DNA of 32,000 nt, taken from a virus. Position numbers and translations under genes: made by a program. The DNA lies in IMG/VR virus record IMGVR_UViG_3300035670_013237, positions 120,001 through 152,000 of that record; one strand, written 5' to 3'. The notes beneath the pieces were generated by a model. That model did no database searches, had not been told where the DNA came from, and saw nothing but the letters and a program-made list of their open reading frames with translations. Below, piece after piece: positions 451 to 31,639 of the stretch (position 1 is the stretch's first letter; the number at the start of each line of letters is the position of its first letter).

Positions 451-551
451 GGCTCAGATAAAAGAGACAAAATGAGATAGGTTTGCTCCCATGGAATTTA
501 CGAGAGCCCATCTCAGCCCACCCTGCCAACCGAAAAAAAAGTTTGTGGAGG

Positions 552-582
552 TGTGCAAACTTCCACAGGCACATTGTAGAGT
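552..582 (+). promoter_or_regulatory. promoter cassette, leaderless class (589..990)
   Basis: A-run 533-540, TGTGCAAACT, 15-nt spacer, TAGAGT, then 6 nt to the ATG. Confidence 0.55.
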
Positions 583-588
583 TGGACC

Positions 589-990
589 ATGAAAGGACGT
601 AAGGTGACATGGAAGGCAGGCGAGGACCCGGCGGTTGCCGGACGCCCTGCACCTCCCCCACGGTACAGGGGAGCGCAGAGCACCTCTCACCTGGAGAAGA
701 TCGCTGACCAGTTGTACCCAGGAGCGCTCCTTGCCTGCGAACGAGAACTATACGTGGACACGTACCACACGAATCTTCCCCATCCGCTCCTTGTCACGAG
801 CGATCCAGCCTGGGCACAGGCGGCGCCCACTGTCGCTCATCGGGGTGACCTTGTCATCTATGCCGGCACTGTACGTTACGAGGAGGAGACTTCAAAGAGT
901 TCTCTGCGTGTCGTACGTCACACGGTCATCTGCCGGGGACAACGATACATCCTCAGCACTCTCGACGGAGTGAAGCCTGTCGACGATTAA
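589..990 (+). CDS. hypothetical protein (133 aa)
   Basis: Listed ORF. The ATG lies 6 nt after the -10-like TAGAGT of promoter 552..582, so it is the leaderless class. GC-rich third codon positions. Confidence 0.6.
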   Translation: MKGRKVTWKAGEDPAVAGRPAPPPRYRGAQSTSHLEKIADQLYPGALLACERELYVDTYHTNLPHPLLVTSDPAWAQAAPTVAHRGDLVIYAGTVRYEEETSKSSLRVVRHTVICRGQRYILSTLDGVKPVDD

Positions 991-1001
991 ATTCGTGAAT
1001 G

Positions 1002-1032
1002 TGTGCAAATAGCCCGCCAATCTTGGTACAAC
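1002..1032 (+). promoter_or_regulatory. promoter cassette (1074..1274 operon)
   Basis: TGTGCAAATA, 15 nt, TGG-TACAAC. Leader hairpin 1042-1061, SD AGGAG. Confidence 0.6.
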
Positions 1033-1073
1033 AGAACTGTGGGGTGGGAGAGTGCCCGCCCAGGAGATGAGCG

Positions 1074-1274
1074 ATGCAAGAGTTTACCATCATGCGAGCC
1101 CGCCGAACCACAGGTGGCGAGTACGTCATCCTGTGCCACCTGCCTGAGAACAAGGTGACGCCCTGGGTGACGTGGCGTGCGGCGACAGTCGACGGCCAGG
1201 GCGCGTACCGGGGCAACTATTTCTACGCGAACGAAGAGACCTTCGCATACGAGGACTTCAACACTCGCACCTGA
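1074..1274 (+). CDS. hypothetical protein (66 aa)
   Basis: Listed ORF preceded by promoter cassette 1002..1032, leader hairpin 1042-1061 and SD AGGAG 1062-1066. Confidence 0.65.
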   Translation: MQEFTIMRARRTTGGEYVILCHLPENKVTPWVTWRAATVDGQGAYRGNYFYANEETFAYEDFNTRT

Positions 1275-1284
1275 GGGAGACCAC

Positions 1285-1563
1285 ATGAGAGAGCACTTCA
1301 TCCCATCCGCCAAAGATCCAACCAGGCGGATTCACGTGATCGAATACGGAGGCAGGTGGTGGGCTCGAGTGGGTGGCTCACCACAGGTGTCCATGTTCTG
1401 GCGCACTCCCAGGGGAGACTGGGGCTTTAGCGCCCCTGTGGACCCTCCCCCGGGCCTTGCAGCATGGTCCACTGACGACACGGTGGAGTGGATCGCAGAC
1501 CTCCGGACGGTCATCAGCTTCTTCGAAGAACAACAACGATACTTCAAGGCGACGGAACTATGA
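1285..1563 (+). CDS. hypothetical protein (92 aa)
   Basis: Internal ATG of listed ORF 1177..1563 with SD GGGAGA 6 nt upstream. It starts 8 nt after the stop of the previous gene. The earlier part of the ORF overlaps 1074..1274. Confidence 0.65.
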   Translation: MREHFIPSAKDPTRRIHVIEYGGRWWARVGGSPQVSMFWRTPRGDWGFSAPVDPPPGLAAWSTDDTVEWIADLRTVISFFEEQQRYFKATEL

Positions 1564-29277: not shown

Positions 29278-30092
29278 TGCACTCAAAGCGTGCTGAAAAA
29301 GAGAAGAAAAACGTGAATGTCGCAATCAATGATTATCTCAACAATCTTCAGACCTTTCCGCAGCTGAAGCACCCCGAAGTTGTGGAGCTTTTTCAGCGCT
29401 TTGAAGCAGGCGGCCGGGCCGCAGAGAAGGCTCGCGCCCGCCTGATTGAGTGCAACCTACGACTCGTGGTGTCGATCGCGAAGCAGTACCGCAGCCATAA
29501 TATTCCAATGGAAGACCTCATCCAAGAGGGTAATATTGGACTCATGAAGGCTGTGGAGCGCTTCAAGTGGGATAAAGGTTTTCGATTTTCGACGTATGCC
29601 ACTTGGTGGATCAAGCAAGCCATCGGCCAGCATGTCATGAAGCGAAAGCGCATCATACGCCTGCCTGCCCATGCTGCGGCCGTCCAGCGTAAGCTTCTGC
29701 AGGCTGCTGATGAATATCGAGAGATGATGGGGTGTGAACCCACACAAGAAGAGCTGACGAAGCTCGTGGGTGCCTCGACGACCGTTGTCAAGGCCACGAT
29801 GCACGGTGGACGGGCCGTCATTTCTCTCCAGCAGCCGATCTCGTCCTCAGATGATGAGAGCGACTCAATTGAAGACAAAGTCGAAGACCACAGCCTACAG
29901 GCGAATCCGTTTGAGTCTGTCGCACAAGTCGAGCTCTTGAAAATAGCTAAAAAAGTAATCGCGGAGCTGACGCCCAAAGAAGCTGCAATCATTCGGCTTC
30001 GATTTGGGCTCGTCGATGAGGAGAACCCCGAGAAGTATCCGATATCGGAAGATGAGCTCCAGTCTGTCATGAGTGGTAAGAGCCTCACATGA
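29277..30092 (+). CDS. sigma-70 family RNA polymerase sigma factor, truncated in region 4.2
   Basis: Region 2 is LIECNLRLVVSIAKQYRSHNIPMEDLIQEGNIGLMKAVERFKWDKGFRFSTYATWWIKQAI. Region 3 is IRLPAHAAAVQRKL...EPTQEEL. Region 4.1 is LTPKEAAIIRLRFGL. The ORF ends 26 aa later (…SVMSGKSLT*), with three in-frame stops in the next 18 nt. Confidence 0.9.
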   Translation: MHSKRAEKEKKNVNVAINDYLNNLQTFPQLKHPEVVELFQRFEAGGRAAEKARARLIECNLRLVVSIAKQYRSHNIPMEDLIQEGNIGLMKAVERFKWDKGFRFSTYATWWIKQAIGQHVMKRKRIIRLPAHAAAVQRKLLQAADEYREMMGCEPTQEELTKLVGASTTVVKATMHGGRAVISLQQPISSSDDESDSIEDKVEDHSLQANPFESVAQVELLKIAKKVIAELTPKEAAIIRLRFGLVDEENPEKYPISEDELQSVMSGKSLT

Positions 30093-30346
30093 TAGACCTA
30101 GCAATTACCATTTTGTGCACTGGAGTTGGTTCCGGTGCACTTTTTTTATCGCTCGCCTGTGCACATCGCATTGTGTCAGAGACTAGAATGAAGAAGAGCG
30201 CGCTAGAGCGCTCGTTGCAAGCTGAAGAACCTCAGCAGGCCGTGGATGAACTGCAGCAGCGTCTAGAAGAGTTTAGGCGGGCTCGTTTTGGCCCCACGAT
30301 GCAGCAGGGCTCTCCACACTCTCAGAAAATTCAAAAAAATAGGTAA
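30089..30346 (+). CDS. single-pass membrane protein with coiled-coil tail (85 aa), anti-sigma-like position
   Basis: Listed ORF. ATGA overlap with the sigma stop. N-terminal TM helix (LAITILCTGVGSGALFLSLACA). Confidence 0.55.
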   Translation: MIDLAITILCTGVGSGALFLSLACAHRIVSETRMKKSALERSLQAEEPQQAVDELQQRLEEFRRARFGPTMQQGSPHSQKIQKNR

Positions 30347-30359
30347 GGAGGAATTAGGA

Positions 30360-30668
30360 ATGGCTTTGAAAAAAGGTGCTCGAGTTGACAGGGGATACGC
30401 GACGGTCACAGATGATGAGGGCGTCAACTATCGTGAAATCGCAGAAATGATGACCGAGATTGGATTCACGATGAACCACTCGTCCGCACGTAATTATGTC
30501 CTGCGTGTCATGCGCAAGTTTGCGGTAGCCTTCGATGAGAGCTGGGACCTCGACCTCACAGAGGATCGAATCGACGAAATTGCCAAGTCTCCATTCTTTC
30601 AGCAGGGTATCGCAGAGCTCCTGCACAGCCTCGAGGCACTCCGGCGGGTTCGTAATTCTTCGACATAA
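30360..30668 (+). CDS. small HTH protein resembling sigma region 4.2 / LuxR-type HTH (102 aa)
   Basis: ATG 30360 inside listed ORF 30288..30668. SD TAAGGAGG. NYREIAEMMTEIGFTMNHSSARNYVLRVMRKFA has the helix-turn-recognition-helix spacing and the R....R...RK(F/L) pattern of sigma70_r4. Confidence 0.6.
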   Translation: MALKKGARVDRGYATVTDDEGVNYREIAEMMTEIGFTMNHSSARNYVLRVMRKFAVAFDESWDLDLTEDRIDEIAKSPFFQQGIAELLHSLEALRRVRNSST

Positions 30669-30712
30669 AAGTAATAGTTATTTTGAATTAGCACACTCTC
30701 AAGGAGAGCGAG

Positions 30713-31156
30713 ATGATGAAGCAAAAGAGCCTTTCTAAGTCAAATATTTCAACTCTAAAGTTGACAGACCTCCTGCGCCGGCGGCGGGCGACCCTGCGCG
30801 AATACATCGATGATTTTGGCATCATCACGTATGAGGCTCTCCTCGAGAGGTGCACCAGGATTGGTGTTATACCTCCCAGCAGGGAAGAATTTGCTGGACT
30901 AAACATTCCTGTCGTCAATTCTCCTGCAGAGGGTCTTGTCGTGCTAGAGCCCCCACCTGTGATACGGGAGGTCACAGGAAAACCAATCGACCCTGAAACC
31001 AATGAAGAGCTACCCTTCTTCACCCAAGAAGATGAGAGCGTTAATTCTACGCCTACCACAGTGGGAGAAGGAGGAGAGCATGTTATGTTCCAGAAACCTT
31101 CTACAAAAAAGACCAAAAAGCGAAAAGTTGAGCTCTTTGAGCTTCCTGAAGAGTGA
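30713..31156 (+). CDS. hypothetical protein (147 aa)
   Basis: Listed ORF. SD AAGGAGAG upstream. Confidence 0.65.
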   Translation: MMKQKSLSKSNISTLKLTDLLRRRRATLREYIDDFGIITYEALLERCTRIGVIPPSREEFAGLNIPVVNSPAEGLVVLEPPPVIREVTGKPIDPETNEELPFFTQEDESVNSTPTTVGEGGEHVMFQKPSTKKTKKRKVELFELPEE

Positions 31157-31171
31157 TGTGGCACACTCTCG

Positions 31172-31627
31172 ATGTATGGAAAGAAGAAGAAAATCAAGCA
31201 CCGCACACCTGATTCAAGCACAGAAATTTTTCTTGCTTATGAAGCCCAACTTCAAGAGCTTGAGTCGATACGGCGAGGTTTAATATTTGCTCTTGAGAAG
31301 CAGACACATCAAAATTTTTTAGCGCAGGGAGGTTGCAGAGAGTGCAGGGGGCGTGGCTGGATTCCTTTTCAAGTAGAAGGTGGATTTGATTATCCACCTT
31401 GTCCTGTTGGTGAGTGCACACCTGAGAGCCGCAGGACCACAGGGGCTGATTCAGGCTTTGATTGGCATGATGAACTCAATGGTGTGGAAAACCCCTGTGG
31501 CTCACACACAGACCAGTATGCTGTACTCATTGGTCCAGTAGATTGTATGATCAGCGAGCTAATGTCACAGGTGCTCAGTACACGCGAGAGCGTAAAACTC
31601 CAAAAGAAGGTGCAAACCCCCAACTAA
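31172..31627 (+). CDS. hypothetical Cys-containing protein (151 aa)
   Basis: Listed ORF. CRECRGRGW...CPVGEC may be a zinc-binding pattern. Confidence 0.65.
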   Translation: MYGKKKKIKHRTPDSSTEIFLAYEAQLQELESIRRGLIFALEKQTHQNFLAQGGCRECRGRGWIPFQVEGGFDYPPCPVGECTPESRRTTGADSGFDWHDELNGVENPCGSHTDQYAVLIGPVDCMISELMSQVLSTRESVKLQKKVQTPN

Positions 31628-31639
31628 GAGTGATAAGGT
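31609..31639 (+). promoter_or_regulatory. promoter cassette, leaderless class (DNA ligase)
   Basis: GGTGCAAACC (inside the end of CDS 31172..31627), 15 nt, TGA-TAAGGT, then 6 nt to the ATG. Confidence 0.55.

Follow-up and report, generated by a model that had tools for sequence, protein, structure and literature searches.

The window analysed here is a stretch of 32,000 nucleotides of viral DNA (positions 120,001 to 152,000 of IMG/VR virus record IMGVR_UViG_3300035670_013237), and its intergenic DNA carries many copies of a promoter-like cassette in which a decamer, RGTGYAAAYC, stands at a fixed distance upstream of a -10-like hexamer. Contigs that encode window proteins come from two sequencing runs (SRR11566349/50) and a JGI metagenome (3300034073); the longest of them reaches 271 kb and thus points to an uncultivated jumbo phage. 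Megablast of 25 kb of the window found no close DNA match among 50,697 phage records, and tblastn of the phage's sigma factor and DUF2201 protein against phage records gave distant matches only. Gene models for positions 4767-32000 follow the public gene calls on identical contigs, and those for 1-4766 were made with a codon-usage caller of our own that matched the public calls elsewhere. The left half of the window (552-16100, 56-60% GC) is rich in orphan genes, and seven of the nine proteins scanned there have no Pfam or PHROG family; the right half consists mostly of long, tightly packed gene strings, among them the genes of an RpoD-like sigma factor and of a 102-aa protein. There are two phage tRNA genes, Lys(UUU) at 11689-11764, between two cassettes, and Gln(UUG) at 27694-27764.

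The repeated unit and its place among the genes

The strict pattern RGTGYAAAYC-N15-TAYAMY occurs 12 times in the window and not once in 100 shuffles, and the nonamer GTGYAAAYC was found 24 times against 0.9 expected. A two-block weight matrix (the decamer plus TGnTACAAC, spacer 13-17 nt) trained on 25 clear copies returned 33 sites scoring at least 12 (null 0.3), 35 at 10 or above and 38 at 8 or above (null 1.6), and the figure of at least 37 copies given in a preliminary description of this DNA was therefore about right. The 33 sites are called strong copies below. Within the matrix, the TGn that precedes the hexamer in nearly all copies carries 1.7 bits at T and 1.45 bits at G. The 15-nt spacer reported earlier holds for the strong copies apart from 6406(-) and 15233(-), with 16 nt, and 23499, with 14 nt; the copies with a perfect TATAAT (15233(-), 15611(-), 19710 and 16131), those of the low-GC flavour ending in AAACTCC (19710, 22649 and 28893) and the nine minus-strand copies between 12979 and 16100 were all recovered as described. 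A scan of the first 16.5 kb for TTGACA-N16-18-TATAAT gave 4 sites against 5.3 expected, and since this is no excess, the cassette is the sole promoter-like signal in excess in that part of the window. The strict cassette pattern has one match in IMG/VR, on an unrelated contig of 35% GC (L001).

Intergenic DNA makes up ~18% of the window and contains all 33 strong cores, four of which lap the end of a coding sequence (CDS). The tight packing remarked on in the preliminary description is real: the stop codon of CDS 8736..9083 (9081-9083) is the TGA within TGATACAAC, and three decamers (6076, 9059 and 31609) fall within the CDS that precedes them. A protein gene is the target of 31 strong cores and tRNA-Lys that of one (11543). 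The remaining copy, 6375-6406(-), has no gene, and it alone departs from the rule, stated earlier for every case, that the cassette is sense to the next gene. The statement that nearly every small gene has its own copy was too strong. Of the 33 strong copies, 28 fall within 552-16100; a copy lies no more than 150 nt upstream of 26 of the 38 genes there, and of only 7 of the 32 genes between 16150 and 32000.

Aligned copies reveal a composite unit of ~110 nt, larger than the 31-nt core, in which the elements follow a fixed order: the stop codon of the upstream gene, an A-run, an optional GC stem around the decamer and TGn-TAYAAC, and then AGATTCA, a hairpin in the 5′ untranslated region (5′ UTR) of the form GGYGGGGA-loop-TCCCCRCC, a free GGAG that serves as Shine-Dalgarno sequence (SD), and ATG. 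The conserved part extends ~45 nt beyond the hexamer, a portion that had not been described before. The A-run (AAAAAAGT), noted earlier as frequent, was found in 12 of the 33 strong copies, usually straight after the upstream stop codon. Eight of the 33 copies have a GC stem of at least six pairs with the decamer in its loop (the flank-swapped null gives 11%); most stems lack a sense-direction U-run behind them, 13597(-) being the only copy with one. On the opposite strand, the decamer stem and the A-run together read as a hairpin-plus-T-run terminator (13972-14003, 6768-6794, 13580-13615) that points against the direction of all neighbouring genes; such signals might block antisense transcription.

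In the window, 16 leaders fold into the 5′ UTR hairpin with predicted energies of -12 to -20 kcal/mol. The hairpin begins ~11 nt past the hexamer and leaves the SD unpaired, and in these copies the ATG lies 41-50 nt past the hexamer. Because the MAFFT alignment of the cassettes is not structure-aware, hairpin pairs were tabulated sequence by sequence. When the window and three metagenome relatives are pooled, the third position of the leader stem covaries, appearing as U-A 16 times, as U-G six times, as C-G three times and never as C-A, and several G-U pairs are tolerated in the stem; this is the pattern expected of a selected RNA stem. In other copies the leader is short (24-28 nt) and unstructured, and three weak-scoring copies (552, 28196 and 31609) show a leaderless geometry, with ATG 6 nt past the hexamer and no SD. 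The loop of the leader hairpin is often AUGG(U/A)A (for example at 6489-6494 and 7575-7580, and throughout the metagenome contig L111 described below), with its AUG 5 nt after the GAGG of the leader stem. A short upstream open reading frame (ORF) starting at this AUG was considered and dropped, as frame and stop are inconsistent between copies.

Conservation and probable recombination of the unit in related phages

The promoter-like core is a property of a clade. IMG/VR holds at least 129 relatives of the phage sigma factor at 54-74% identity, several of them on contigs of 200-370 kb, with GC contents ranging from 35 to 61%. Sixty non-redundant related loci, 746 kb in all, formed the comparative set. 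On their sense strand, TAnnn[TC] starts exactly 24 nt downstream of 132 of the 466 GTGYAA sites, against counts of 7-24 at other offsets and of 10 on the antisense strand. The logo of the 132 sites reads cA-GTG[CT]AA-agt ... gtGgTAnanT-N6-cATG. The G of TGn is present in 88 of them, and TGn directly before a TAnnnT-type hexamer, the hallmark of an extended -10 element, is thus found in the relatives as in the window. In 80 of the 132 sites an ATG lies 6-7 nt past the hexamer and coincides with the predicted start site. Transcripts beginning there would be leaderless; the geometry of the relatives' sites indicates that such mRNAs are made, and a start codon at this position would be hard to explain if the sites were not promoters. 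The TGnTAnnnT-N6-ATG anchor taken alone occurs at 94 sense and 10 antisense sites and recovers aGTGyAA de novo (T 85%, G 82%, A 80%, A 81%). The upstream box accompanies ~80% of these anchor sites, which suggests that it is not dispensable.

Two of the promoters are positionally orthologous across the clade, that of the DNA ligase gene (31609 in the window) and that 1.0-1.3 kb upstream of the sigma gene (28196). Relative L018 carries 13 such promoters in 16 kb, 10 of them leaderless, including a run of six with one promoter per gene of 50-131 codons, so that dense arrays are a trait of the clade. In 14 loci that surround a tail-region gene, the motif was not found on the structural strand, and inspection by eye of the DNA upstream of tail-region genes gave no obvious late-promoter motif of another kind.

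Taken comparatively, promoter function as first proposed is well supported by the fixed geometry in 60 loci, the box recovered de novo and the position of the ATG. These observations also bear on whether the cassettes might be something other than promoters, such as selfish or structural repeats resembling miniature inverted-repeat transposable elements or repetitive extragenic palindromes, RNA processing or terminator signals, or repressor operators. Such a view could draw on the several GC stems that with the A-run read as a hairpin and T-run on the opposite strand, on the GNRA-like GCAA or GTAA of the decamer loop, and on the fact that the cassettes recombine. The stem around the box, however, occurs in only 8 of 33 copies and is not in the relatives' consensus, the cassettes agree strictly in strand with the genes and keep a fixed spacing to the TGnTAnnnT block, and the relatives' ATG falls exactly at the expected start site. 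An Rfam scan of the window matched two tRNAs and nothing else. We therefore regard a non-promoter origin as highly improbable.

Evidence that the cassettes also serve as joints comes from metagenome contigs that were scanned with a leader pattern. One of these contigs, L111, has window-type cassettes on both strands, 15 within 9 kb, with the same A-run, stem, box, TGGTACAAC and hairpin; outside the cassettes it has no DNA similarity to the window and few protein homologues, one at 79% identity. Another, L113 (1.5 kb), is a close relative whose DNA is 89-96% identical and rearranged, with the gene order 8262-8521-8736 / 7187 / 9368 where the window has 7187-7598-7881-8262-8521-8736-9114-9368. 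All three breakpoints relative to the window lie inside cassettes, and two are chimeric. The first separates the spacer of the 8188 copy from its -10, the second fuses the 9059 promoter to the 7110 leader, and the third is a 7524/9311 chimera at copies that share CTCTACGAACCGTGATACA. Two copies in the window itself, at 4007 and 4693, are identical at 71 of 77 nt up to the ATG, and the proteins encoded downstream of them are unrelated. The Logan and JGI contigs that carry window proteins are all 99.99-100% identical to the window and hence of no use as a test of shuffling. As far as the sequences allow, the cassette-bounded rearrangements match modular shuffling of the kind known for the promoter-early stem-loops (PeSLs) of T4-like phages, and the two contigs provide direct comparative evidence of cassette-bounded gene shuffling.

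PeSLs were described in phages phi1/RB49, PST and nt-1 (Arbiol et al. 2010, PMC2839356; Comeau et al. 2014, PMC4122927). They are promoter/stem-loop cassettes of ~100 bp that open with the stop codon of the preceding gene, within an A/T-rich tract, and close with the SD and ATG (PMC2839356); they are dense in hyperplastic regions rich in orphan genes, and mediate insertion, deletion and replacement by recombination (PMC2839356, PMC4122927). One promoter per small gene had been called unusual for phages in the preliminary description, and this does not hold, since T4-like PeSL regions have the same arrangement (PMC2839356, PMC4122927), as does relative L018. The cassettes in the window resemble PeSLs in their intergenic layout of ~100 bp from a stop codon in an A/T-rich stretch to SD and ATG, in a putatively strong promoter with TGn/-10, in stem-loops of G-runs and C-runs around the upstream box or past the -10, in their concentration, roughly one per small gene, in variable regions rich in orphan genes, and in breakpoints between close relatives that fall inside the cassettes. 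They differ in that the upstream box is GTGYAAA and a recognisable sigma-70-like -35 is lacking, in that the main conserved stem-loop lies in the 5′ UTR, has no U-run and does not indicate terminator activity, and in that relatives use the same promoter without any leader. The phage, moreover, is a member of an apparently unrelated clade of uncultivated jumbo phages with a truncated, RpoD-like sigma factor of their own, a type of sigma that T4 lacks. By analogy, then, this is a functionally PeSL-like system whose upstream recognition box is unusual and whose carriers are apparently unrelated to T4-like phages, and it would extend mobile regulatory cassettes of the PeSL type beyond those phages to a widespread environmental group of jumbo phages.

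Some features of gene content touch on the mobility of these units. Five small proteins (4081-4398, 4475-4690, 7187-7525, 8736-9083 and 10414-10734) form a family with 21-47% identity, and the products of 6857-7093 (+) and 14003-14248 (-) are 60% identical; some gene-plus-cassette units are paralogous, including this opposite-strand pair. Base composition jumps near 19000, from 56-66% GC (1-19000) to 46-54% GC (19000-32000), and the cassette-rich block of orphan genes is the high-GC part of the window. Relatives at 58-61% GC exist (L008, L018 and L023), and recombination with a relative of higher GC may have brought the block in.

Proposed reading of the promoters and its rivals

The conserved geometry and the cassette-bounded breakpoints lead us to think it likely that these sequences are promoters of one clade-specific class, carried in cassettes that double as shuffling joints. 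The class would consist of an extended -10 element (TGnTAnnnT, here mostly TGnTACAAC) and a fixed box, GTGYAAA, at -37 to -28, which would take the place of a TTGACA-type -35. The TGn/-10 part would be read by a primary-type sigma factor, the A-run could act as an UP-like element, and in about a quarter of copies the box would lie in the loop of a GC stem. Transcription presumably starts ~7 nt past the hexamer. The GC hairpin of 7-8 bp would then lie 4-5 nt from the predicted 5′ end, as a leader that may stabilise the mRNA or organise translation. Near-identity over 30-80 nt between cassettes would permit homologous recombination to move, delete or replace the small genes that they flank, so that each cassette could be both an expression signal and a shuffling joint, like the PeSLs of T4-like phages. 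The resulting code, aGTGYAA-N18-TAnnnT, often leaderless and present clade-wide, could guide the annotation of transcription units and of true start codons across hundreds of genomes of uncultivated phages. A targeted literature search, which is not proof of absence, found no description of this promoter code or of the clade.

Presumably the host holoenzyme fires these promoters first, as early or non-structural promoters, because the operon of the sigma and 102-aa genes lies behind the same promoter type at a conserved position, because early-looking orphan genes have these promoters in front of them and tail genes have none nearby, and because the order of A-run, box, TGn and -10 mirrors T4 early promoters (PMC2988021). 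The latter have an 'UP/-35/TGn/-10' layout (PMC2988021). They too are many near-identical strong promoters with an A-rich upstream tract, a box, TGn and a -10, used for seizing the host polymerase early and expressing many small genes, a use that the present class may share; the difference is that the -35 equivalent here is not TTGACA-like.

The same likeness is the starting point of an alternative in which the box is simply the host's -35, region 4 of the host primary sigma preferring GTGCAA with an 18-nt spacer, and no phage factor takes part. At 18-nt spacing GTG aligns with the TTG of TTGACA, T4 early promoters with this layout are read by host polymerase alone (PMC2988021), and the phage's sigma operon uses the same promoter class. 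One box nevertheless serves phages of 35-61% GC, which probably do not all infect one host lineage. Region 4.2 of primary sigma factors and the TTGACA element are conserved in most phyla, which weighs against this alternative as well, and we consider it doubtful.

The phage sigma factor was itself among the readers of the decamer envisaged in the preliminary description. It aligns to residues 352-565 of the 613 of E. coli RpoD and ends 26 residues later, and the Pfam region 4 profile matches at positions 2-18 of 50 only. About 60 distinct sigma factors of the family all end at the same point after region 4.1, with an acidic tail. Lacking the helix-turn-helix of region 4.2, neither the protein encoded in the window nor any of these relatives can be the direct decamer reader. 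The equivalent of E. coli E458, which contacts TG, is Ala in the phage sigma as read off the alignment. A primary-like sigma without its -35-reading domain, encoded beside promoters with a conserved non-canonical box at -35, poses a testable question of recognition.

Its neighbour, the 102-aa protein, is by synteny a candidate for decamer reader or sigma partner, and would fill the role of the accessory -35 binder suggested in the preliminary description. The conserved gene string (loci L012-L091) consists of a 116-aa gene, the sigma gene, a variable gene, the 102-aa gene and a 147-aa gene, and the 102-aa gene lies 200-740 nt after the sigma gene in 80 of 80 related loci fetched through sigma. 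The protein has 690 homologues with an invariant central stretch, NYREIA...GF.MNHSSARNYV. Three of these (L092-L094) are on contigs binned as Paceibacterota and Bdellovibrionota metagenome-assembled genomes; they are probably phage contigs mis-binned into bacterial genomes, and the bin labels were not used. A confident AlphaFold model (pLDDT 82) has four helices, with a 6-residue loop and a 23-residue second helix, and is not a classic helix-turn-helix. The idea that the protein is a detached region 4.2 drew no support from any search: Foldseek of the model against the PDB gave no match with E < 1, a sequence search of the PDB gave nothing significant (phmmer E = 2.7), hhalign of the family against a hand-assembled sigma region-4 alignment gave a probability of 0.3%, the best Pfam hit was DUF6471 at E = 0.037, below threshold, and there was no PHROG family. 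It is kept as a candidate only.

The truncation and the synteny invite a second alternative, a bipartite phage sigma. Host core enzyme with the truncated sigma (regions 1.2-4.1) would read TGnTAnnnT, a separate phage protein, for which the 102-aa product is the best candidate, would bind the GTGYAAA box (GGTGCAAACC), and the host holoenzyme would serve only a first, basal round, in a manner likened to T4 MotA/AsiA sigma appropriation or to T4 gp55/gp33. The identical end point of the ~60 family sigmas, the 102-aa gene in 80 of 80 loci with its 690 homologues and invariant stretch, a box that is invariant across phages of widely differing GC, and a strong conservation of TGn that suits a sigma without -35 reading all favour it. 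On the other side, the 102-aa family is unlike sigma region 4 and has no solved-structure match, no confident Pfam or PHROG family and no classic helix-turn-helix in its model, and the residue equivalent to E458 is Ala. The sigma/102-aa operon is itself behind the same promoter class, and the promoters front early-looking orphans and are missing near the tail genes where phage sigmas usually act. On balance such a bipartite factor seems unlikely.

T4 middle promoters offer the nearest precedent for a phage-specific box. They carry a MotA box, (a/t)(a/t)(a/t)TGCTTtA, 12 +/- 1 bp from the -10, and depend on sigma appropriation by MotA/AsiA (PMC2988021). Shared features are a -10 that TGn often precedes, a phage-specific box overlapping and replacing the -35 at a fixed distance, a layout that implies a reader other than sigma region 4.2, and the presence of tRNA genes among the targets. 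The differences lie in the box, RGTGYAAAYC with 15 nt from decamer to hexamer, in the phage having its own sigma without region 4.2 where T4 remodels the host's sigma, and in the class also driving the operon that encodes the candidate factors. MotA and AsiA Pfam domains were absent from the 16 window proteins scanned (the phage genome is ~271 kb). The further proposition that GTGYAAA is read by a phage-encoded stand-in for region 4.2 acting with the truncated sigma, a two-piece system that would give the clade a private promoter code usable across hosts and serving also as recombination joints, strikes us as rather improbable.

Actinobacterial promoters provide a parallel for the downstream half. 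In mycobacteria, TGnTANNNT contributes to promoter strength and leaderless transcripts start at the A of the ATG (Cortes et al. 2013, PMC3898074). The likeness to the actinobacterial TGNTANNNT pattern lies in a TANNNT that follows TGN, in a start codon 6-7 nt downstream and in relatives' hexamers such as TAGGAT and TAGAGT. Mycobacterial promoters differ in having no conserved upstream box, which is nearly obligatory here, and the copies in the left half of the window differ in having leaders with an SD.

Several observations sit uneasily with promoters that are fired by the host holoenzyme and double as joints. A box conserved across phages of 35-61% GC is unexpected if region 4 of diverse hosts' sigmas reads it. 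The earlier remark that the decamer is not TTGACA-like was well founded, as the box agrees with TTGACA at 3 of 6 positions only, and it is better conserved than the inner positions of the -10. The absence of region 4.2 fits dependence on an extended -10 and a helper, and the true user could then be the phage sigma. Evidence of shuffling consists of one contig of 1.5 kb and one of 9 kb, and most leader hairpins lack a following U-run, which leaves the terminator half of the PeSL analogy unsupported.

Feature coordinates and neighbouring palindromes

Table 1. Cassettes, promoter cores and associated genes in the window. Cores comprise decamer, spacer and hexamer; ATG and start codon give the position of the predicted translation start.
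Feature	Position	Strand	Remarks
Promoter core TGTGCAAACT-N12-TTGTAGAGT	552..582	+	Leaderless, ATG 589; A-run and stem around decamer
Cassette	1002..1073	+	Core 1002-1032; 41-nt leader with hairpin and SD; ATG 1074
Cassette	2301..2369	+	Core 2301-2331; 38-nt leader, weaker hairpin; ATG 2370 (DUF2201/VWA protein)
Cassette	3718..3776	+	Core 3718-3748, poor -10 TATCCT; 28-nt unstructured leader; ATG 3777
Cassette	4007..4080	+	Core 4007-4037; hairpin GGCGGGGA/TCCCCGCC; SD; ATG 4081
Cassette	4399..4474	+	Core 4399-4429; hairpin GGTGGGGA/TCCCCACC; SD; ATG 4475; 84% identical copy in L109
Cassette	4693..4766	+	Core 4693-4723; leader as in 4007 copy; ATG 4767
Cassette	6076..6147	+	Core 6076-6106, decamer within CDS 5905..6093; hairpin GGAGGAC/GTCCTCC; ATG 6148 (26-codon ORF)
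Orphan copy	6375..6406	-	16-nt spacer, weak -10; divergent from 6438 over A/T palindrome; geneless
Cassette	6438..6510	+	Core 6438-6468 (GGTATAAAAC); leader hairpin; ATG 6511
Cassette	6780..6856	+	A-run; 8-bp stem around decamer; core 6780-6810; leader hairpin; ATG 6857
Cassette	7110..7186	+	Stop codon and A-run; stem around decamer; core 7110-7140; leader hairpin; ATG 7187; L113 breakpoint
Cassette	7524..7597	+	Core 7524-7554; leader hairpin; ATG 7598; L113 breakpoint with 9311 copy
Cassette	8188..8261	+	Core 8188-8218; leader hairpin with G-U pairs; ATG 8262; L113 breakpoint
Cassette	9059..9113	+	Core 9059-9089 over end of CDS 8736..9083; 24-nt leader; ATG 9114
Cassette	9311..9367	+	Core 9311-9341; 26-nt leader; ATG 9368
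Promoter core	9667..9697	+	Terminator-like hairpin at ~9705-9735 precedes gene 9776
Cassette	10259..10315	+	Core 10259-10289; 26-nt leader; ATG 10316
Promoter core	11543..11573	+	tRNA-Lys (11689-11764) 115 nt downstream; no SD or ORF after core
Cassette	11767..11832	+	Directly after tRNA; core 11767-11797; short hairpin; ATG 11833
Cassette	12947..13009	-	Core 12979-13009; ACTAGT palindromes flanking and in spacer; start codon 12946
Cassette	13540..13597	-	12-bp stem around decamer; core 13567-13597; start codon 13539
Cassette	13907..13987	-	Stop codon and A-run; 10-bp stem around decamer; core 13957-13987; leader hairpin; start codon 13906
Cassette	14249..14323	-	A-run; core 14293-14323; leader hairpin; start codon 14248
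Core, 16-nt spacer, TATAAT	15202..15233	-	14-bp stem around decamer; terminator-like hairpin at ~15163-15177 follows
Cassette	15454..15533	-	A-run; core 15503-15533; leader hairpin; start codon 15453
Core, TATAAT, 8-bp stem	15581..15611	-	Tandem, just upstream of 15533 cassette
Cassette	15932..16010	-	A-run; core 15980-16010; leader hairpin; start codon 15931
Core, truncated leader (5′ arm only)	16070..16100	-	Tandem, upstream of 16010 cassette
Candidate divergent promoter CGTGTAAAAG-N15-TATAAT	16130..16160	+	Below matrix threshold
Core TGTGTAAAAC...TGTTACACT	19072..19102	+	Inverted repeat TGTTACAC/GTGTAACA overlaps core
Low-GC core, TATAAT	19710..19740	+	87-nt structured leader; ATG 19828
Low-GC core	22649..22679	+	87-nt leader; ATG 22767
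Weak copy	23499..23528	+	14-nt spacer
Leaderless promoter (predicted)	28196..28226	+	TAGTAT, ATG 28233 6 nt on; heads operon with sigma and 102-aa genes
Doubtful low-GC copy AGTGTAAAAACTCC	28893..28923	+	Poor hexamer; below matrix threshold
Leaderless promoter (predicted) of DNA ligase gene	31609..31639	+	ATG 31646; orthologous promoter in many relatives
Phage RpoD-like sigma	29277..30092	+	Regions 1.2, 2, 3 and 4.1; no region 4.2
102-aa all-helical protein	30360..30668	+	200-740 nt downstream of sigma; candidate partner or decamer reader

A few copies (Table 1) stand next to further signals. At 19072-19111 the inverted repeat overlies the -10 and the site scores on both strands; the repeat may be an operator. 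The cassettes at 15163-15233 (-) and 9667-9735 (+) are followed within ~10-40 nt by a terminator-like hairpin with a T-run, with no ORF, and small RNAs or attenuators are possible products of this arrangement. The palindrome ACTAGT occurs 12 times in the window against 3.1 expected, always in one of three intergenic clusters (5394-5486, 12950-13018 and 15101-15128). Seven copies, 12-16 bp apart, lie upstream of gene 5582, three flank or sit within the spacer of cassette 13009(-), and two are upstream of 14351..14998(-). The clusters look like an operator array for a regulator.

Divergent arrangements have palindromes of their own. In the region between the minus- and plus-strand gene blocks (16130-16266), the candidate promoter with TATAAT is followed by five GGGGCCCC palindromes, of which the window has 7 against 1.0 expected. 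The divergent cassette pairs at 6375-6468 and 16070-16160 have an A/T palindrome in common, of which AGAAAAAAACTTTTTTTTCG is an example, and what is the A-run of one member is the T-run of the other.

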